64,000 nt of DNA from Candidatus Methylomirabilota bacterium (lineage in GTDB: Bacteria > Methylomirabilota > Methylomirabilia > Rokubacteriales > DASRDR01), in the NCBI GenBank assembly GCA_036558225.1, contig DATBGA010000085.1, positions 6,526 to 70,525 of the forward strand, in the 5' to 3' direction. Position 1 is the stretch's first letter; each line of letters begins with the position of its first letter. Shown here in pieces: positions 775-40,962 of the stretch. The notes beneath the pieces are model-generated. The model ran no database searches, had not been told where the DNA came from, and was given only the letters and a program-made list of their open reading frames with translations. The translations under genes and the position numbers were made by a program.

Positions 775-1227
775 CTACCCGGGGCTCGGCGGCTCCGCCA
801 GGATCCCCTGGATCACCGCCCGGAACTCGGCGATCGTGAACGGCTTCTCCAGGTAGCGGAGAGACGTCCCGTCCAGGAACCGGCGCGTCTCGGTGCTCAT
901 GATGTCCCCCGTGACGAACACCATGCGCCGGACGACCTCGGGGCACACGACCCGCAGCTCCTGGTAGAGGGCCGGGCCGTCCACGTCCGGCATCCGCACG
1001 TCGCTGACGATCAGCGCGTAGGCCCCACGGCGCACGAGCTCGAGCGCCTCGCGCCCGTCCATCGCCCGGTCGACCTCGTAGCCTTCCAGCGACAGGAACT
1101 CCGCCAGCAGCTCGCCCACGACCCGCTCGTCCTCGACGAGGAGGGCGCGCGTCTCGGGCCGACCGGCCGGCGGCGGGACCGGCTCGGGGACCGGGTCCAC
1201 CCGGGGGATTTCGACCGGCGCGCTCAC
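775..1227 (-). CDS. stand-alone CheY-like receiver protein (single-domain response regulator)
   Basis: Receiver signature (LLVEDE, phospho-acceptor context LIVSDVRMPDVDG, FVTG, EKPF) with no output domain. GTG start at 1227 overlaps the kinase stop in GTGA. The upstream part of the 296-aa track ORF is Arg/Pro-rich and overlaps the kinase out of frame. Confidence 0.8.
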   Translation of the reverse strand: MSAPVEIPRVDPVPEPVPPPAGRPETRALLVEDERVVGELLAEFLSLEGYEVDRAMDGREALELVRRGAYALIVSDVRMPDVDGPALYQELRVVCPEVVRRMVFVTGDIMSTETRRFLDGTSLRYLEKPFTIAEFRAVIQGILAEPPSPG

Positions 1228-3140
1228 GGCGCCTGGCTCCCGATCCGCCGCTCGCCGGAGGCCGGGTGGTCCGCCCGGGGGCCGGCGCGCGTCGGGAGCG
1301 CGATTGTGAACACGGTCCCCTGGCCCGGGGAGCTCCGGAACGTCACCGTGCCGCCATGGTCCTCGACGATCTTGTGCGCGATGGCCAGCCCGAGCCCCGT
1401 GCCCCCCACCTTGGTGGTGAAGAATGGGTTGAAGACGTCCGCCGTCTCCTCCGGCTTGATCCCGCTGCCGGTGTCCATCACCTCCAGCACGAGCCGGTCG
1501 CGGGACACGCCGCCGGGGCCCTCGGCATCCGGGGGCCAGCCCAGGCGCACGGTCAAGGTGCCGCCCTCGTCCTCCATGGCGTCGATGGCATTCGCGACGA
1601 GGTTGAGGAGGGCCTGGTAGAGGTGCTCGGCGTCTCCGGGGACGGGCGGCACCCCGGCCGGCCACTCGCGCCGCACGCGGATGCGACGGGCCTCGATCTG
1701 CGGCGCGTAGAGCTCGAGCGCCTGCTCGAGGAGCGGCGGGAGGTGCACGGGGGCGAGCTCGAGACGCGCGGGCCGGGCGAGCCGCAGAAGCCCGTCGACG
1801 ATCGCGTTGATCCGCTCGAGCTCGCGAGGGACCACGCTCTGGAACCGCTGGCGGAACCGCTCGTCGTCGAATCGCCGGGCGACGTGGCGGCTGAACGTCA
1901 TGATGGACGTCAGCGGGTTCTTGATCTCGTGCGCGAGGCCGGCCGCCAGCGTGCCCAGCGCCGCGAGACGGTCGGAGCGGCGGAGCTGCTCCTCCAGCTG
2001 GCGGACGGGCGTCAGGTCCCGGAGGACGGCCACCACTCCGAGGGCCTGCCCCTCCGCGCCGCGGAGGGGGGTCGTGGCCACCTCGACCGGCGCGGGCGGC
2101 CCGTCGCGCTGCGGCAGCGTGAGCACGGCCTGCGGCACCCCCACGCGGGTCCGGAGCGTCTCGAGTAGCAGGTCCCGGAACTCCGGGACGTGATGGAACG
2201 CCTCCGCGGCCGGCCGGCCCGTGAGCACGCTCGCCGCCCAGCCGGTGAGGGCCTCCGCGGCGGGGTTCACGGTGACCACGCGGCCGTCGAGGTCCAGCGT
2301 CACGAGCCCGTTCACGAAGGACCGGAGAATGTGATCGTTGTAGCTCTTCAGATCGGACAGCTCCGCGAAGCGCTGGTGCAGCGCCGCGTCGGCCACCTCG
2401 AGGTCCGTCCGCTGCTGGCGGAGCTGCGCCGCCATCTCGTTGAACGCGAGGGCGAGCCGGCCGAGCTCGTCGGAGCTGCCCGGGTGAATGCGCTGGTCCA
2501 GCTCCCCGCGCGCGATCGCGGCGACGCCGTCGGCGAGCTCGCGGACCGGCCGGGTGATCCGCCGGGCGACGACCGCTGTCGCCAGGCCGCCCAGCACGAG
2601 CGCGACCACGGCCAGCGCCGCCAGCTCGCGTCGGGTGCCGGCGATCTCCGCGTCCATGCGCCGCCGCGACAGCGCGATCCGCACGCTGCCCCAGCGGGTG
2701 CCGTCGACCAGGATCGGCACCGCGAAGTCGTAGAGCCGTTCCCCGTCCGACCCGGTCGTCTCCTGCAGCACGGGGGCGGCCGCGAGGGCCCGGAGGGACA
2801 CCGAATCCGACGGCGTGGAGCCGACCGCCCCGGGATCCCGGCTGTGCGCCACGACCTGGCCCAACCGGTCGAGGATCATCGCGTAGACCACGTCCGTCTC
2901 ATGGTCGAAGCGCACGACGTTCTGCTCGAGCGCCGTGAAGTTGTAGAGGAGGAGCGCGCCGGCCGACACGCCGGCCAGACCTTCCGCCAGAGCCGTCCCG
3001 CGGCGGTGGACCTCCTCGATGATGGTCGTCCGCTGCCGATGCTCCACGACGACCGCTACCGCGGCCATGAGGGCGGCGACGATCAGGATGGTCCCGATGA
3101 GGAGCTTGGTGCGAAGCGACACGAAGACGGGGCGAGTCAT
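1224..3140 (-). CDS. sensor histidine kinase (TM, ~150-aa periplasmic domain, TM, HAMP, PAS, HisKA, HATPase_c)
   Basis: Start is MTRPVFVSL (ATG at 3140). Two hydrophobic spans flank an extracytoplasmic segment. H-box LAHEIKNPLTSI, N-box NLVANAIDA, G-boxes DTGSGI and GGTGLGLAI. The first 325 aa of the 964-aa track ORF overlap the SBP gene and are rejected. Confidence 0.9.
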   Translation of the reverse strand: MTRPVFVSLRTKLLIGTILIVAALMAAVAVVVEHRQRTTIIEEVHRRGTALAEGLAGVSAGALLLYNFTALEQNVVRFDHETDVVYAMILDRLGQVVAHSRDPGAVGSTPSDSVSLRALAAAPVLQETTGSDGERLYDFAVPILVDGTRWGSVRIALSRRRMDAEIAGTRRELAALAVVALVLGGLATAVVARRITRPVRELADGVAAIARGELDQRIHPGSSDELGRLALAFNEMAAQLRQQRTDLEVADAALHQRFAELSDLKSYNDHILRSFVNGLVTLDLDGRVVTVNPAAEALTGWAASVLTGRPAAEAFHHVPEFRDLLLETLRTRVGVPQAVLTLPQRDGPPAPVEVATTPLRGAEGQALGVVAVLRDLTPVRQLEEQLRRSDRLAALGTLAAGLAHEIKNPLTSIMTFSRHVARRFDDERFRQRFQSVVPRELERINAIVDGLLRLARPARLELAPVHLPPLLEQALELYAPQIEARRIRVRREWPAGVPPVPGDAEHLYQALLNLVANAIDAMEDEGGTLTVRLGWPPDAEGPGGVSRDRLVLEVMDTGSGIKPEETADVFNPFFTTKVGGTGLGLAIAHKIVEDHGGTVTFRSSPGQGTVFTIALPTRAGPRADHPASGERRIGSQAP

Positions 3141-3151
3141 GCGACGTCCGC

Positions 3152-4789
3152 TCAGCGCGGTCGCTCGAGCCACACCTTGCGGAAGGGGATGTACGAGTCG
3201 CCGAGGCCGCTCACCTCGACTCCCTTGACGTACGGCTGGAAGAGGCGCTCGTACGTGTGGTGCCAGACGGGGATCACGGGGGCGTCCTCCAGCACCATCT
3301 CCTCCACCCGGCGGTAGACCTCGACCCGGCGCGCCATGTCCGGCTCGGCCCGCGCCCGCTCGAGCAGCGAGTCCACCGCCGGATTGGCGTAGCCCATGTA
3401 GTTCCACGGGCTCGCCGAGTAGAACAGCTTCGCGAGGAAGTTCTCGGGATCCGGCACGTCGGCGAACCAGGCCCGGAGAAAGACGGGGAGCTTCCGCTCG
3501 GCCATGGCCTTGGAGAAGCTCGGCCAGTCCGGATTGTACTGGAACTCCGCCGTGACCCCTACCGCCTCGAGATCCTTCCGGATCCGATCGTCCTCGCGAA
3601 GGATCTCCTCGGACCGGACGCTCGACCAGATCACGATGGGCGGCAGCCCGCGCCCGCCGGGATAGCCTGCCTGCGCCAGAAGCTCGCGCGCACGCGCGGG
3701 ATCGTAAGCGTAGCCCTTGAGCTTCGGGTTGTAGCCGAGCGTCCCGGGCGGGAGGATGCCCTTCGCGAAGGCGTAGCGGCCCAGCCAGATCTCCGAGACC
3801 ACCGCCTCTCGGTCGATGGCGTGGAGGAGCGCCTGGCGCACCCGCCGGTCGTCGAGCGGCTTCGTGCGCGTGCTGATCCCGTAGTGGCGAAGGCCGAAAA
3901 CCGGCCGGCGCACGTACTGGTAGGACTGCCCGGCGATGATCTGGCGGTAGTCCTTGGCGGGAATCGGGCTGTCCTCGAGCGCCCCCGCCTTGAACTCGGC
4001 GAAGACTCCGTCGGGGCCCTCCCCCGGAAAGATGCGATACACGAGCCGCGCGAGCTTCGGGGGCCCGTCGAAGTAGTCCGGGTTGGCGGCCAGCACGATC
4101 TCCTTCCCTCGGTCCCACCGCACGAAGCGGAAGGGACCCGTGCCGACGGGCTGGGCGCCGAACGCCTCCCCCTGCTCCTCCACCAGCTCGCGCGGCACGA
4201 TCTTGGCCTGGCCGACTGCCAGGATGGAGACGAAGGGCACTGGCGCCTCCGTCAGGGTGACGCGGACGGTGTAGCGGTCCACCACGGTGAGCCCCGAGAT
4301 GGCGCGGGCCCGACCCTCGCGAAACTCCTGCGCGCCTTGAATGCCCATGAAGTGATCGGCCCCTCCCGATCGGGTCCGCGGGTCCACGAGTCGGGTGAAG
4401 GAGTAGACGACGTCATCCGCCGTCACCTCCCGGCCGTGGTGGAACCTGACGCCCTTTCGGAGGGTGAAGGTCCAGGTGAGACCATCGCGCGAGGCGAGCC
4501 AGAACTGGGCGAGCGCTGGCGTGATGCTGAGGGTCTGGTCGAACTGGACGAGCCCGTCGAAGAGCTGCTGCATGACCGCGAGGCTGTAGATGTCGCGGAG
4601 CCGGGCCGGGTCGAGTGTCCCGGGGTCGTGGCCGATCGGGCGGCGATAGACTCCCCCCAGCTGGGCAGGCGAGCCCCCCTGGGCCCCGACCGAGGTCGAT
4701 CCGAGGCCCAGTGAGAGCCCAAGCGTGCCTAGGGCCAGCCAGCCGCCCCAGCGACGACGCGCGGAGCGTCCCGACGGGGCGGGACGCAT
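3152..4789 (-). CDS. family-5 extracellular solute-binding protein (peptide/nickel/opine type), orphan
   Basis: Signal peptide MRPAPSGRSARRRWGGWLALGTLGLSLGLG followed by a typical DppA/OppA/NikA-like SBP_bac_5 sequence. ATG at 4787-4789. No permease or ATPase genes are adjacent. Confidence 0.85.
   Translation of the reverse strand: MRPAPSGRSARRRWGGWLALGTLGLSLGLGSTSVGAQGGSPAQLGGVYRRPIGHDPGTLDPARLRDIYSLAVMQQLFDGLVQFDQTLSITPALAQFWLASRDGLTWTFTLRKGVRFHHGREVTADDVVYSFTRLVDPRTRSGGADHFMGIQGAQEFREGRARAISGLTVVDRYTVRVTLTEAPVPFVSILAVGQAKIVPRELVEEQGEAFGAQPVGTGPFRFVRWDRGKEIVLAANPDYFDGPPKLARLVYRIFPGEGPDGVFAEFKAGALEDSPIPAKDYRQIIAGQSYQYVRRPVFGLRHYGISTRTKPLDDRRVRQALLHAIDREAVVSEIWLGRYAFAKGILPPGTLGYNPKLKGYAYDPARARELLAQAGYPGGRGLPPIVIWSSVRSEEILREDDRIRKDLEAVGVTAEFQYNPDWPSFSKAMAERKLPVFLRAWFADVPDPENFLAKLFYSASPWNYMGYANPAVDSLLERARAEPDMARRVEVYRRVEEMVLEDAPVIPVWHHTYERLFQPYVKGVEVSGLGDSYIPFRKVWLERPR
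4766..4787 (-). promoter_or_regulatory. perfect 8-bp stem-loop that begins at the G of the SBP start codon
   Basis: mRNA sense is AU[GCGUCCCG]CCCCGU[CGGGACGC]. No Shine-Dalgarno in the 17 nt between the peptide-1 stop and this ATG. Confidence 0.3.
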
Positions 4790-4806
4790 CCAGGAGAGCG
4801 GGGCTG

Positions 4807-4953
4807 CTACCAGCCGCCGCCGCCGCCGCCGTCGCAGGCGTTGCCCACGGCCTGGAAGACCGGCATGTGGGTCTGCGTCCCCGACTCGATCACCGGGGCC
4901 ACAAGAAGAAAGGACACCACGATCACCAGCACGGTCCATACCTTCGTCATCAT
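4807..4953 (-). CDS. small secreted/membrane-anchored peptide P1 (48 aa), unknown family
   Basis: My own translation: MMTKVWTVLVIVVSFLLVAPVIESGTQTHMPVFQAVGNACDGGGGGGW. SD GGGAGG lies 2-5 nt upstream of ATGATG. Paralog of P2, with mostly synonymous differences in the shared 3' part. Below the size cut-off of the ORF track. Confidence 0.7.
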   Translation of the reverse strand: MMTKVWTVLVIVVSFLLVAPVIESGTQTHMPVFQAVGNACDGGGGGGW

Positions 4954-5026
4954 AGCCTCCCGGACGCCGGACGGCGCCCGACTGTGGGGGTTGGCTCGAT
5001 CGGAACCGTCGTGGTCGGAGAGGGTT

Positions 5027-5170
5027 CTACCAGCCGCCGCCGCCGCCGCCGTCGCAGGCGTTGCCGACCGCCTGGAAGACCGGCATGTGGGTCTTCGTCC
5101 CCGACTCGATCACCGGGGCCACCAGCAGGAAGGACGCGATGATCACAAGCATCGCCGTGAACCTGATCAT
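5027..5170 (-). CDS. small secreted/membrane-anchored peptide P2 (47 aa), paralog of P1
   Basis: C-terminal part of track ORF 5027..5404: MIRFTAMLVIIASFLLVAPVIESGTKTHMPVFQAVGNACDGGGGGGW. SD GGAGGAGG lies 8 nt upstream of the ATG at 5170. Sits downstream of a sigma-54 promoter match. Confidence 0.7.
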   Translation of the reverse strand: MIRFTAMLVIIASFLLVAPVIESGTKTHMPVFQAVGNACDGGGGGGW

Positions 5171-5187
5171 GGGCAGGCCTCCTCCAT

Positions 5188-5206
5188 GCGTCTCGTGGCG
5201 AGACGC
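5188..5206 (-). promoter_or_regulatory. stem-loop in the P2 5' leader, immediately 5' of the SD
   Basis: GCGTCTCG-CCA-CGAGACGC, a perfect 8-bp stem with a 3-nt loop. Confidence 0.3.
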
Positions 5207-5231
5207 GGTCTGTGGGTTCGGAGTGATGGAG

Positions 5232-5247
5232 AGCAAGGCCGGGGCCA
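5232..5247 (-). promoter_or_regulatory. sigma-54 (-24/-12) promoter for the peptide genes
   Basis: Minus strand reads TGGCCC-CGGCC-TTGCT against consensus TGGCAC-N5-TTGCW (10 of 11 specified positions, correct spacing). It lies about 60 nt upstream of the P2 ATG. Confidence 0.6.
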
Positions 5248-5348
5248 CCGCGGAATTCGATGGCCCCGCGAGGACGGAAGTATCCGCCAGGACGGGCGAA
5301 TCAGGTCTGCGCGTAGCCGGGGCTCGGCCGGTCGGACCAAAGACCGGA

Positions 5349-5368
5349 GTGCACTGTTTCCTGTGCAG
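5349..5368. promoter_or_regulatory. candidate enhancer (UAS) site A: GTGCAC-N8-GTGCAG
   Basis: Same architecture as sites B and C. Centre is about 110 bp upstream of the -24 element. Confidence 0.45.
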
Positions 5369-5432
5369 CCCCCCCGGCGATCGGGTGCGGATCTCCCCGA
5401 TCACGTCTGCAGAATCAGGGCCTTACGACGCG

Positions 5433-5473
5433 GTGCACACTAGACTGTGCACGGTGCACTGTCTACTGTGCAC
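5433..5473. promoter_or_regulatory. candidate enhancer sites B and C: two abutting GTGCAC-N8-GTGCAC units
   Basis: GTGCACactagactGTGCAC g GTGCACtgtctactGTGCAC. Centres are 21 bp apart, and the A-B centres are 84 bp apart (whole helical turns). The units overlap the stop codon of the enhancer-binding protein gene. TGCAC half-sites resemble NtrC-family sites. Confidence 0.5.
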
Positions 5474-6902
5474 CTCCCCCATCCGGTCGACCTCCGGCGG
5501 AGGCCAGGGCCACGGGGTCGATCCCCCAGGCCAGGAGCTTCGTCTTGAGCGAGTTCCGGTGGAGCCCGAGGAGCCGCGCCGCCTCCGACTGGTTCCACCG
5601 AACCCGCTCGAGGACGCGGAGGATGACCTGGCGGTCGAACCGCTCCCGGGCCTCGCGGAGCGGCAAGCTCGTGGGGTCGTCGACCAGGTGGCGCACGTCC
5701 GGGAGCATCAGGTCGAGCGGCACGTCCTTGACCTCGACGACGAGCCCGTCGGCCAGCGCGACGGCGCGCTCGATGACGTTCTGGAGCTCCCGCACGTTCC
5801 CCGGCCACCCGTACGCCATCAGGACGTCGAGCGCGGCCGGCGAGACCCCGGTGACGCGCTTGTGCAGGAGATGATTCGACCTCCGGATGAAGTGGTCGAC
5901 CAGGAGGGGGATGTCCTCGCGGCGGTCGCGGAGCGGCGGCACGGCGATCTGGACGACGTTCAGGCGGTAGTAGAGGTCCTCCCGCAGGCTCCCGCCCTGG
6001 ATGGCCTTGCGCAGGTCGGCGTTGGTGGCGGCGATCACCCGCACGTCGACCGGGATGCGCCGGGTCCCCCCGACGCGCTCGATCTCGCGCTCCTGGAGCA
6101 CGCGCAGGATCTTGGCCTGGAGGTCGACGCGCAGCGTGGCGATCTCGTCCAAGAACAGGGTGCCCCGGTGCGCCAGCTCGAACTTCCCGAGCTTCCGCGA
6201 GACGGCGCCGGTGAAGGAGCCTTTCTCGTGGCCGAAGAGCTCGGACTCGATGAGCGTCTCGGAGATCGCCGCCACGTTCACGGGCACGAACGGCTGGTCC
6301 CGCCGCGGCCCGTGCCGGTGGATCGCCCGCGCGACGAGCTCCTTCCCGGTTCCGCTCTCGCCCGCAATCAGCACGGTGAGCGGGTTCCGCGCCACGGCGC
6401 TGATCAGCTGGTAGAGCTGCTGCATCAGCGGATGCTGGCCGACGAGCTGGTCGAAGTCGCGCTCCCGCGCCAGCTCCGATCGGAGGTAGACGACCTCGCG
6501 GTCGAGCGCGCGGCGCTCGAGCGCACGGCGGATCAGGGGCAGGATCTCGTCCTCGTCGAACGGCTTGGTGACATAGTCGAGCGCGCCCAGCTTCATGGCC
6601 GCCACCGCGGCGGTCACGGTCTGGACCGCGGTCACCAGGACCACCTCAACGTGCTCGTCGATCGCCTTGATCCGCTCCAGGACCTCGATGCCGTCCATGC
6701 CGGGGAGCCGGAGGTCGAGCAGGACGAGGTCCACCGGTGCGCCCTGGACGCGCTCGAGGGCCTCAGGGCCGTCGCCCGCCTCCACGATCTGGTACTGTTC
6801 CTCCAGGACGAGCCGGAACGCCTCGCGGATGCCCGGGTCGTCGTCCACGACCAGGATGGTGGGGCGGGCGGCGCGGTCCGGCACGGACGGGAGCGGGGAC
6901 AT
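5463..6902 (-). CDS. sigma-54-dependent response regulator (NtrC family: REC + AAA+ + Fis-type HTH)
   Basis: Start is MSPLPSV (ATG at 6902). REC domain ILVVDDD and [16 protein letters not shown]+ Walker [24 protein letters not shown] (GAFTGA-type loop). C-terminal [19 protein letters not shown]. Confidence 0.9.
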
Positions 6903-14512: not shown

Positions 14513-15652
14513 GTGTGGCCCGCTCCGGTGTGGATCCGGACAGCCGACGAGGCCGAGGCCCTCGCCCGCGACCTTCACGGCGTTCCGGCCGTCGCCCTCG
14601 ACACCGAGGCCGATAGCCTCCACCACTACCCCGAGCGCCTCTGCCTGATCCAGCTCGCGGACCCTCGGGGCCGCGCCTTCTTCCTGGACGCCCTCGCCCT
14701 CGTCGACCTCGAGCCCCTGCGGCCCCTCTTCGCCGATCCGGCCACCGTGAAGGTCCTCCACAGCGGGGACAACGACGTCGTGTACCTGAAGCGCCGGTTC
14801 GGCCTCGCGTTCGCCGGTCTGTCCGACACCATGCTGGCCGCGCGCTTCCTCGGCGTGCGGGAGCTCGGCCTCGAGCGCCTGCTCCTAAAGTACATGGACG
14901 TCCCGCCGGCGCGGTCGCAGCAGAAGACCGACTGGGCGCGCCGCCCGCTGACGCCCGCGCAGGAGCACTACGCGGCCGAGGACGTCCGTCACCTCATCCC
15001 GCTCCGGGACCGTCTCCTCGCCGACCTGCGCGCGATCGGGCGCGAGAGCTGGCTCGAGGAGGAGTGCGAGGCGCTGGCGGCCCTCCCCGTCCCCGAGCGC
15101 CCGTCCGACGAGGACGGGTACCGGCGGATCCGGGGCGCCTCACGGCTCGCGCCGCGCGGCCTCGGGATCCTGCGCGTCCTCTATCTCCAGCGGGAAGCGT
15201 GGGCGCGTGCGGAGCATCGCCCGCCCTTCAAGGTCCTCAACCCGGAGACGCTGATCGCCTTGGCCGAGCGTCAGCCGGTCGAGCCGGCGGCGCTCGCCGG
15301 CGTGCCGGGGCTCAGCCCCCGTCTAGTGGAGCGCTACGGAGAGGACCTCCTGGCGGCCGTGGCGCGGGGGATCGAGGCGGGGCCCCCGGAGCCGCCACGG
15401 GGGCCTCGGCCGGCGCGCCCCGTCGTCACCAACGCCAGTCGCCAGCGAGCCGACGCGCTCCGGAAGTGGCGGACGGAGGCGGCCGAGGGATCGGGTCTCG
15501 ACCCCGGCGTCCTCCTGCCTCAGCGCCTGATCGACGCCCTCGCGCTCGACCCGCCGACGGACCCCGCCGGCCTACGCCGCGTCCCCGGGCTCCGGGACTG
15601 GCGCGTCGACGCCTTCGGCCGGGCGATCCTGGCCGCGCTCCGAACGACCTGA
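14513..15652 (+). CDS. rnd: ribonuclease D (DEDD 3'-5' exonuclease + HRDC)
   Basis: Exo motifs ALDTEADSL, HSGDNDV and YAAEDV, plus a C-terminal HRDC-like region. GTG start. Confidence 0.85.
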   Translation: MWPAPVWIRTADEAEALARDLHGVPAVALDTEADSLHHYPERLCLIQLADPRGRAFFLDALALVDLEPLRPLFADPATVKVLHSGDNDVVYLKRRFGLAFAGLSDTMLAARFLGVRELGLERLLLKYMDVPPARSQQKTDWARRPLTPAQEHYAAEDVRHLIPLRDRLLADLRAIGRESWLEEECEALAALPVPERPSDEDGYRRIRGASRLAPRGLGILRVLYLQREAWARAEHRPPFKVLNPETLIALAERQPVEPAALAGVPGLSPRLVERYGEDLLAAVARGIEAGPPEPPRGPRPARPVVTNASRQRADALRKWRTEAAEGSGLDPGVLLPQRLIDALALDPPTDPAGLRRVPGLRDWRVDAFGRAILAALRTT

Positions 15653-39981: not shown

Positions 39982-40962
39982 TCACTCGATGACGTGAGAC
40001 GCCTGTGCCCGCAGCGATGTCGGAATGGTGAGCCCAAGGGACGACGCGGTCCTCAGGTTGAGGACGAGCTCGAACTCGGTCGGCTGCTCGATCGCCAGGC
40101 TGCCGGGCTTGGTCCCTCGGAGAACCCGGTCCACGTACACGGTGGCCCGGCGGACGATGGCGTCGACGTCGGGGCCATAGCTCAAGAGAGCCCCGGCCTG
40201 AGCCCACGGACCCCAGCCCGACACGACCGGGAGCATCCGTCGGGCGGCGAGCTCCATGATTCGCTGACGGCCGAACGTCATCAGCCGGGAAGACACCACG
40301 ATGATCGCTTCCGCGCGTCCGGCATCCGCGGCCTGGAATGCTCCTTCTACATCAGCAAGCGCTCGGACCTCGAGCGATTGCACGTGTATGCCGAGCGTTC
40401 GCCCGGCGGCCTGGGTCTCGGCGTACTCCGGATCGACGTGCGTGGGATTCCAGAGCACGCCCACCCGTGAGATCCGGGGCGCCGCCTCCTTCAGGAACTG
40501 AAGCCGCTTCGCCGCCAGGTCGGACGACACGAACGTCACGCCGGTCACGTTTCCGCCCGGCCTCGCCAGGCTCGGCACGAGACCCGCTTGCACGGGATCC
40601 GTGCTGACCGCCATGACGATGGGAATCGTGTTGGTCGCGGTCCGGGCGAACGGGGCGACGTCGCCTCCCATGGCGAAGATCACGTCGGGCTTGAGCGCCG
40701 CGAGCTCCACCGCGAGCGCCGCGAGCCGCTCGGGATTGCCCTCCGCGTAGCGGTACACGGTCGTCAGGTTCTTTCCCTCGACGTAGCCAAGCTCGCTCAG
40801 GCCCTGGCGAAACGCCGCGAGGTTCGGATCTCTCTCGGGGGTGCTGAACAAGAGCACGCCCACACGCGCGATCTTCGGCGGCCGTTGCGCCTCGGCGGCG
40901 AGCAGTCCGGCAAGAAGCGGAATGACCGCGCCGACGATGACCCTGCTGGCCGGCAGTCTCAC
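39982..40962 (-). CDS. ABC_sub_bind family substrate-binding protein (full length, 326 aa)
   Basis: Signal peptide, then RVGVLLFS...GGNVTGV...the typical C-terminal ...EQPTEFELVLNLRTASSLGLTIPTSLRAQASHVIE. Confidence 0.8.
   Translation of the reverse strand: MRLPASRVIVGAVIPLLAGLLAAEAQRPPKIARVGVLLFSTPERDPNLAAFRQGLSELGYVEGKNLTTVYRYAEGNPERLAALAVELAALKPDVIFAMGGDVAPFARTATNTIPIVMAVSTDPVQAGLVPSLARPGGNVTGVTFVSSDLAAKRLQFLKEAAPRISRVGVLWNPTHVDPEYAETQAAGRTLGIHVQSLEVRALADVEGAFQAADAGRAEAIIVVSSRLMTFGRQRIMELAARRMLPVVSGWGPWAQAGALLSYGPDVDAIVRRATVYVDRVLRGTKPGSLAIEQPTEFELVLNLRTASSLGLTIPTSLRAQASHVIE

Follow-up and report, generated by a model that had tools for sequence, protein, structure and literature searches.

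In the metagenome-assembled genome (MAG) of an uncultured member of the Rokubacteria (G000), a 64-kb stretch of DNA, here called the window, carries two tandem peptide genes, P2 and P1, downstream of a gene for an NtrC-family response regulator. Positions 5188 to 5473 of the window, which lie between P2 and the regulator gene and take in the 3' end of the latter, are probably the control region of a peptide operon, in which a sigma-54 promoter of the -24/-12 type would be activated from three dyad enhancer sites (A, B, and C) by the adjacent regulator. The coordinates of these and all other features are collected in the table below.

The three sites share the architecture GTGCAC-N8-GTGCAC and were found at the coordinates and with the start-to-start spacings given in the original prediction, 21 bp between B and C and 84 bp between A and B. 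With up to one mismatch allowed, this unit occurs three times in the window, at A, B, and C and nowhere else (0.11 expected), and none of 100 shuffled sequences reached three occurrences; the single hexamer GTGCAC is not enriched (16 versus 15.8 expected). The paired-hexamer architecture is real, but what is conserved is an 18-mer core, TGCAC-N8-GTGCA. Site A, too, matches this core perfectly, its one odd base being an outer hexamer base only. Perfect matches to this core were used for the genome counts given below. Counted upstream from the promoter TGGC, sites A, B, and C begin at 120, 204, and 225 bp; the original prediction had put the enhancer 100 to 230 bp from the promoter. The TAG stop codon of the activator gene (5465-5463) lies inside the spacer of site C and site B is entirely downstream of it, so that the two sites do not straddle the stop codon as had been proposed.

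Throughout the genome, TGCAC and GTGCA are paired perfectly 16 times at a spacing of 8 nt and from 0 to 6 times at any other spacing between 0 and 20 nt; the six matches at 15 nt are a by-product of the tandem pairs. Fifteen of the 16 cores fall into seven clusters, namely, C85 (the peptide locus in the window), C57, C121, C162 (two clusters, C162a and C162b), C167, and C189, which have a pair of sites 21 to 22 bp apart and a third site 82 to 84 bp off, or 199 bp off in C167. Every cluster has a -24/-12 element downstream, which in C121 and C162a is a weaker one. The weaker element of C121, TGGCGTGGATCTCGCT, lies 118 bp from the proximal site, the distance also seen in the peptide promoters, and the element GGGCATGGGCCGTGCA of C162a corresponds to CGGCACGGGCCGTGCA in the orthologous unit of a related genome, G014. 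Approached from the promoter side, strict TGGC-N7-TTGC occurs 129 times in the genome, and six of these matches have at least two sites within 400 bp upstream, where the density of sites would lead one to expect about 0.75 promoters with even a single site. The genome-wide search that had been proposed as a check thus found a rare, promoter-linked motif and no generic repeat.

Homologues of the peptide family were found in 45 of 61 related genomes, and 30 related peptide loci, including loci from other families of the order, were fetched to count promoter conservation. TGGC-N7-TTGC occurs exactly once 65 to 95 bp 5' of the first peptide gene in 27 of these 30 loci. In an alignment of 17 peptide-locus control sequences with a mean identity of 53% (A1), the invariant columns are the TGG and TTGCT of the promoter together with the TGCAC/GTGCA half-sites, and in an alignment of more distant loci (A2) TGG and TTG are kept. 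Site C is identical in sequence and position (-7 from the activator stop codon) in 11 same-genus loci, the spacer (A/G)GAAACA of site A is kept across the genus, and the sites persist both with and without overlap of the activator coding tail.

The promoter element was found on the minus strand at the predicted place, with exactly 10 nt between GG and GC (GG-N10-GC), and TGGC-N7-TTGCW is matched twice in the window, where 0.39 matches would be expected. A sigma-70 promoter scan of positions 4600 to 5600 detected no sigma-70-like promoter. The presence of rpoN, on which the prediction had been made to depend, was verified: PF04552 (Sigma54_DBD) is matched with 201 bits at C34:23131-23604, within a 518-amino-acid (aa) open frame. 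We regard the sigma-54 promoter as real with high confidence.

The recurring order of elements is site pair, IHF-like site, single site, and promoter (IHF, integration host factor), and the spacings were compared across 13 same-genus and same-family peptide loci. The spacing within the pair is 21 to 22 bp, and the spacing from the pair to the single site is either 81 to 85 bp (nine loci) or 94 to 95 bp (four loci), with no values between; the two classes are one helical turn apart, which fits binding on the same face of the helix, as the original prediction had suggested from a single locus. The distance from the single site to the promoter is 118 bp in 8 of the 13 loci (range, 105 to 122 bp), and every same-genus locus has the arrangement of three sites. 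Two or more helically phased dyad sites 80 to 300 bp upstream of the promoter are expected of an NtrC-type enhancer for a group I enhancer-binding protein, and the peptide locus has them. It is very likely that the dyads are the enhancer of the peptide sigma-54 promoter.

The IHF-like site lies 8 bp from site B, between the B/C pair and site A. It is one of six such matches in the window. Of 13 same-genus peptide loci, 9 have a match of at least eight of the nine defined positions at the equivalent place, as does cluster C162a, compared with 2 of 5,000 random 66-bp genome intervals. A gene for IHF-alpha was detected over the profile cutoff, and a gene for a beta-like subunit is also present.

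As predicted, the gene adjacent to the sites encodes an activator of the NtrC family, with receiver (REC), sigma-54 AAA+, and Fis-type helix-turn-helix (HTH) domains by Pfam, the Walker A motif GESGTGKE, a GSFTGA loop, and a putative phospho-acceptor, D63. No NCBIfam equivalog was matched over its cutoff (AtoC, 475 against a cutoff of 714; NtrC [TIGR01818], 439 against 559; LuxO [NF041946], 334 against 800), and the nearest orthologues, with 92 to 93% identity, are found in MAGs of "Candidatus Rokubacteria" or Methylomirabilota. Three observations point to this protein as the binder of the sites. The activator gene ends in or just before site C at every peptide locus examined. In two relatives, G005 (98% complete) and G007, the whole genome contains four and three perfect sites, three of which are at the peptide locus in each, so that the regulon in its smallest form is the module alone; 10 to 32 sites are present in those genomes of the genus that have larger regulons, and none were found in G006, in which no module was detected, and four in G001, these two MAGs being just 68 to 70% complete. 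Finally, the recognition helix of the activator changes with the type of site: HRNSLK(T/A)KL pairs with N8 sites having the inner bases WGT..ACW, and HRNSLKR(M/L)L pairs with canonical 17-bp N7 boxes of the NtrC type, TGCACCA-N3-TGGTGCA, which follow the orthologous activator in other families of the order (L024, L041, L022, and L030). When 80 loci of homologous activators from many phyla were compared, N8 sites were seen solely behind orthologues with 65% identity or more. On these grounds it appears likely that the adjacent REC-AAA+-HTH protein recognizes the sites.

The closest paralogous activators of the genome, C120 and C133 (58% identity), were considered as parts of the system and rejected, as convergent coding sequence lies behind them and no similar sites are present. 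Activator homologues with 49 to 51% identity in MAGs of Syntrophaceae or Deltaproteobacteria (L050, L053, and L051) have TGGC-N7-TTGC about 250 bp past the stop codon, and a similar arrangement, with an activator followed by its target promoter, may occur outside the Rokubacteria.

In the mechanism that we propose, sigma-54 RNA polymerase would wait as a closed complex on TGGCCC-N5-TTGCT, and the response regulator encoded upstream would be phosphorylated, most likely by the sCache-HAMP-PAS kinase of the module. Regulator dimers would bind the three 18-bp dyads, with C and B forming a pair two helical turns apart and A lying eight turns further, and an IHF-type bend at 5413 to 5425 would gather the three dimers into one AAA+ hexamer. 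The hexamer would loop across about 120 bp to the promoter and open it with ATP. At a sigma-54 promoter, an rpoN-dependent start is expected about 12 nt downstream of the GC; the predicted start is near 5221, and the leader would then be about 51 nt long. Near its 5' end the mRNA would carry a conserved stem-loop that adjoins the ribosome-binding site and is most likely a stabilizer or a modulator of translation. At least six more transcription units of this genome have the enhancer-promoter layout before them, and the system as a whole would amount to a positive feedback loop.

Several observations weigh against this account. The promoter had been described as near consensus; the element is indeed there and widely conserved, but it fits 10 of 12 positions of TGGCAC-N5-TTGCW, and scoring against the genome background gave a divided result, in that matches of at least 11 positions are enriched (43 versus 26 in a reversed-pattern control) whereas the 10/12 class to which the peptide promoter belongs is not (150 versus 439). 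The peptide promoter is not callable as significant from its sequence score alone, and the case for it is made by its conservation and its association with the enhancer sites. The IHF-like site is situated between enhancer sites and not, as is usual, between enhancer and promoter. The activator loop reads GSFTGA instead of the canonical GAFTGA, a single substitution that retains the F and the T, and the association of helix with site type comes from just two or three independent lineages. The genome also encodes about 12 other full-length sigma-54 activators. The spacers of site A and of the C167 sites are rich in A/T, those of B and C are not, and this difference could point to a second binder. 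Cluster C167 also has another activator gene next to it and lies between two divergent sigma-54 promoters, so that shared or dual control is possible.

It is conceivable, though rather improbable, that the sites are bound by another sigma-54 activator, either a canonical NtrC-like protein encoded on C35 or the activator beside C167, and that the adjacent regulator acts elsewhere or only together with that protein. The TGCAC half-sites had been called typical of NtrC-type upstream elements, and they are those of enterobacterial NtrC (PMC8743547); the C35 protein has the classic helix NRNTLRKKL and adjoins an NtrB-like kinase. Yet the sigma-54 promoters of this genome's glnA and amtB carry a different 17-bp dyad, TGCCC-N7-GGGCA, about 100 to 120 bp upstream, which weakens canonical NtrC as a binder of the N8 sites, and no nitrogen-assimilation gene is among the targets. 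TGCCC-N7-GGGCA is a candidate for the box of canonical NtrC, distinct from the N8 motif; it is not enriched genome-wide, and this assignment is thus only suggestive. The activator beside C167 is recommended by its position, with divergent sigma-54 promoters at the cluster, and by the A/T-rich spacer that site A has in common with the C167 sites, but no activator was seen among the open reading frames beside the corresponding G014 cluster, which were not profile-scanned. Against both candidates stand the concentration of sites at the peptide locus in G005 and G007 and the shift in site type along with the helix of the adjacent activator.

Perfect palindromes of 18 to 20 bp are also typical of repressor operators, and the dyads might be bound by a conventional dimeric repressor or co-regulator without an AAA+ domain, modulating sigma-54 promoters that are activated otherwise. 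The sites, however, never overlap the -24 element but are located 80 to 340 bp upstream from it, form phased groups of three like the enhancers of NorR (PMC2831303), occur only with sigma-54 promoters, and at the peptide loci follow an activator gene with a Fis-type HTH related to that of NtrC, which recognizes TGCAC; we hold an operator function to be very unlikely. The notion that the GTGCAC pairs are a generic repeat or chance occurrence, that the -24/-12 match is fortuitous, and that the peptides are read from another promoter is close to refuted. The ordinary frequency of the single hexamer in the window and the nonsignificant consensus score of the promoter would agree with it, but neither the specificity of the N8 spacing nor the confinement of the sites to seven promoter-linked clusters would, and orthologous positions are conserved across the order while the flanks diverge. 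The lack of a sigma-70-like promoter in positions 4600 to 5600 likewise speaks against transcription from elsewhere. We thus retain activation of the sigma-54 promoter by the adjacent regulator as the preferred explanation.

The activator probably runs a small regulon of which the peptide operon is the conserved core, as the same site-promoter layout stands before secreted-enzyme genes, which argues for a regulon and not a single switch. The targets are predominantly secreted or surface enzymes with a sporadic distribution among genomes. Where orthologues of the target genes were found in related genomes, the sites were often found with them. The Tle1-like orthologues keep three sites, with spacings of 83 and 21 bp in G003 and 81 and 21 bp in G009; in front of the G009 tyrosinase orthologue, the pair and the promoter TGGCGTGAATCTCGCA are retained; and the unit of S8 subtilase and metallo-beta-lactamase-like protein keeps all three sites and the promoter in G014, where the C167-type protein was found again. 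In G014, where 32 sites make up about 11 clusters, the further targets are M10/astacin-like and M4-like proteases, a pair of TPR and HupE/UreJ proteins, and uncharacterized proteins. For the YcaO small-protein unit conservation is ambiguous: the G003 unit has a site pair, but at a distance of about 600 bp upstream, and the good -24/-12 element there is oriented away from the unit.

Four control regions of G014 (L116, L118, L122, and L123) and the region of C121 in G000 (about 40000 to 40490) are 68 to 74% identical over about 245 bp, with unrelated genes behind them. Additional blocks common to these regions are GAAC-N5-GATTCT after the pair, AAGTGCCCGGC, and the promoter TGGCG(C/T)GAATCTCGCT, and from these similarities they look like one enhancer-promoter cassette that was copied to new genes. 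L122 and L123 (G014:C10:2143300-2143720) form a symmetric divergent enhancer, in which a single site, 84 bp, the pair, 82 bp, and another single site follow each other and an identical promoter, TGGCGCGAATCTCGCT, faces outward on either strand. In C167 (15800-16260), three sites, all with A/T-rich spacers like that of site A, are common to the divergent sigma-54 promoters TGGCACTCCCGTTGC and TGGCGTCCTTCTTGC, and one of the two promoters reads into a ferredoxin-kinase-activator operon whose activator is 48% identical. This could reflect a second activator that shares the motif, or a cascade.

Downstream of the promoter, the gap between P1 and the solute-binding protein gene is only 17 nt, and no intrinsic terminator was found between them; the genes at 775 to 4795 are probably cotranscribed with P2 and P1. 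The perfect 8-bp leader hairpin of the original prediction is present and ends 2 nt before the Shine-Dalgarno sequence. Folded one by one, 9 of 11 leaders of the genus form the stem-loop. When the hairpin was imposed on the alignment, 83% of the cells were paired, compared with 23 to 51% in slid controls, a figure somewhat favored by taking the imposed structure from one of the aligned sequences, and four of the eight pairs show compensatory change. An RNAalifold prediction for alignment A3 was discarded, as it paired untranscribed promoter bases with the leader, and an Rfam scan of positions 4600 to 5600 matched no family. The hairpin lacks a U-tract and is thus not a terminator; a stabilizing 5' stem-loop or a modulator of translation is its most likely role.

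A second hairpin without a U-tract, GCGTCCCG-CCCCGT-CGGGACGC, follows P1 immediately, at 4766 to 4806, and extends into the beginning of the gene for the binding protein. Relatives keep a hairpin after the last peptide gene, with unrelated stems, and such a hairpin could set the ratio of peptide to receptor expression. The stem GCGTCTCG before P2 resembles GCGTCCCG after P1, and a shared RNA recognition element was considered; this was dropped since the stems after P1 are unrelated among the relatives.

Table. Coordinates of the peptide control region, its neighboring genes, and the related loci in G000 (positions without a prefix refer to the window)
Feature	Position	Strand	Sequence, basis, or downstream genes
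Lone receiver gene	775-1251	minus	Pfam
sCache-HAMP-PAS-HisKA-HATPase histidine kinase gene	1224-3140	minus	Pfam
Family-5 solute-binding protein gene	3152-~4790	minus	Pfam
Peptide gene P1	4807-4953	minus	48 aa; tandem copy of P2
Peptide gene P2	5027-5170	minus	47 aa; ATG at 5170; Shine-Dalgarno GGAGGAGG at 5185-5178
Leader stem-loop	5188-5206	minus	GCGTCTCG-CCA-CGAGACGC; perfect 8-bp stem, 3-nt loop; predicted ~+16 to +34
Sigma-54 -24/-12 promoter	5232-5247	minus	TGGCCCCGGCCTTGCT, TGGCCC-CGGCC-TTGCT; sequence reading and conservation
Predicted enhancer site A, proximal single site	5349-5368	strand-neutral	Core TGCACAGGAAACAGTGCA; genome count and promoter linkage
IHF-like site	5413-5425	plus	AATCAGGGCCTTA; 8/9 defined positions of WATCAANNNNTTR
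Predicted enhancer site B	5433-5452	strand-neutral	Core TGCACAGTCTAGTGTGCA; 21 bp from C; sequence, genome count, and alignment
Predicted enhancer site C, distal pair member	5454-5473	strand-neutral	Core TGCACAGTAGACAGTGCA at 5455-5472; half-sites invariant in A1
NtrC-family (group I) response regulator gene	5463-6902	minus	Pfam Response_reg, Sigma54_activat, AAA_lid_14, HTH_8
Cluster C57	C57:19260-19298		950-aa tyrosinase-domain protein
Cluster C121	C121:40450-40488		79-aa protein, YcaO
Clusters C162a and C162b	C162:9350-9471, 14674-14794		C162a: 303-aa protein of no assigned function, S8 subtilase, metallo-beta-lactamase-like protein; C162b: astacin/M10-like protease, 819-aa protein of no assigned function
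Cluster C167	C167:15869-16107		Secreted 412-aa protein
Cluster C189	C189:1827-1948		Tle1-like (DUF2235) phospholipase
amtB region	C177:4143-4278		Sigma-54 promoter TGGCACTCGCGTTGCA
glnA region	C127:14789-14900		Sigma-54 promoter CGGCACGGCGGTTGCT

The closest parallel to the control region is NtrC at glnAp2 of Enterobacteria, with which it has in common a GG-N10-GC promoter preceded, at 100 to 250 bp, by several sites with TGCAC/GTGCA dyads, an activator of the REC-AAA+-Fis-HTH type for which oligomerization is required, and the presence of rpoN. The published NtrC box is TGCACCAnnnTGGTGCA, of 17 bp (PMC8743547, PMC4987338). In contrast to this box, which has an N7 spacing and the inner bases CCA..TGG, the sites described here are of 18 bp (N8) with the inner bases WGT..ACW. 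The activator also stays below the NtrC equivalog cutoff, the kinase is of the periplasmic-sensing sCache-HAMP-PAS type and not NtrB, and the targets are peptide and secreted-enzyme genes, whereas glnA and amtB use another dyad. The locus is accordingly not one of NtrC proper, given its 18-bp box, the missing equivalog match, the different kinase, and targets that comprise proteases, a lipase, a tyrosinase, and a YcaO locus.

Three dyads for one sigma-54 promoter, which would fit three dimers forming one hexamer, are also known from NorR and the norVW promoter of Escherichia coli, where all three enhancer sites are needed for the ATPase activity of the activator (PMC2831303). NorR differs in being a one-component sensor with a GAF domain and closely packed GT-N7-AC sites, whereas the activator described here is a two-component response regulator, and its third site lies eight to nine helical turns from the pair with an IHF-like site between. 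At IHF-assisted sigma-54 promoters, such as those of nifH and Pu, the IHF site is found between enhancer and promoter. The control region of the peptide operon resembles these in having a match to WATCAANNNNTTR upstream in a genome with IHF genes, but, unlike in nifH and Pu, the IHF-like site has the distal pair of enhancer sites on one side and the proximal single site on the other.

In the quorum sensing of Vibrio, the binding protein LuxP and the kinase LuxQ act together with LuxO, sigma-54, and the qrr genes. The likeness to this circuit is one of logic only, in that a periplasmic binding protein and a sensor kinase would feed an NtrC-family sigma-54 activator. The outputs here are peptide and exoenzyme genes and not small RNAs, and the putative signal would be a gene-encoded peptide expressed from the regulated promoter itself. 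A LuxO-type activator was rejected, both on the NF041946 score and because the targets are protein coding.

Promoter and enhancer, taken alone, are an ordinary kind of switch. The interest lies in what is wired together, namely, an undescribed family of exported peptides, a putative receptor, and exoenzyme genes in an uncultured phylum. The wiring diagram now specifies one promoter with three 18-bp sites, the activator proposed to act on them, a possible site of bending, and the set of genes that would be regulated together. If the activator is correctly assigned, the sites would give the DNA code of a new branch of the NtrC family, with an N8 box in place of N7, and a three-site layout with spacing quantized in helical turns, and they would tie an exported-peptide family to the control of secreted proteases, a lipase, a tyrosinase, and a YcaO locus. 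More tentatively, the module may be a sigma-54-wired circuit of peptide autoinduction with a logic like that of quorum sensing, and the approximately 250-bp cassette of pair, IHF-like site, single site, and -24/-12 element, copied before sporadically distributed accessory genes, may constitute a portable, genus-specific exoproduct regulon. In such a circuit, the activator would turn on its own putative signal peptides together with the receptor formed by the binding protein and the kinase, and the cassette-bearing genes would be those for secreted proteases, a Tle1-like lipase, a tyrosinase, and a YcaO peptide-modification locus.

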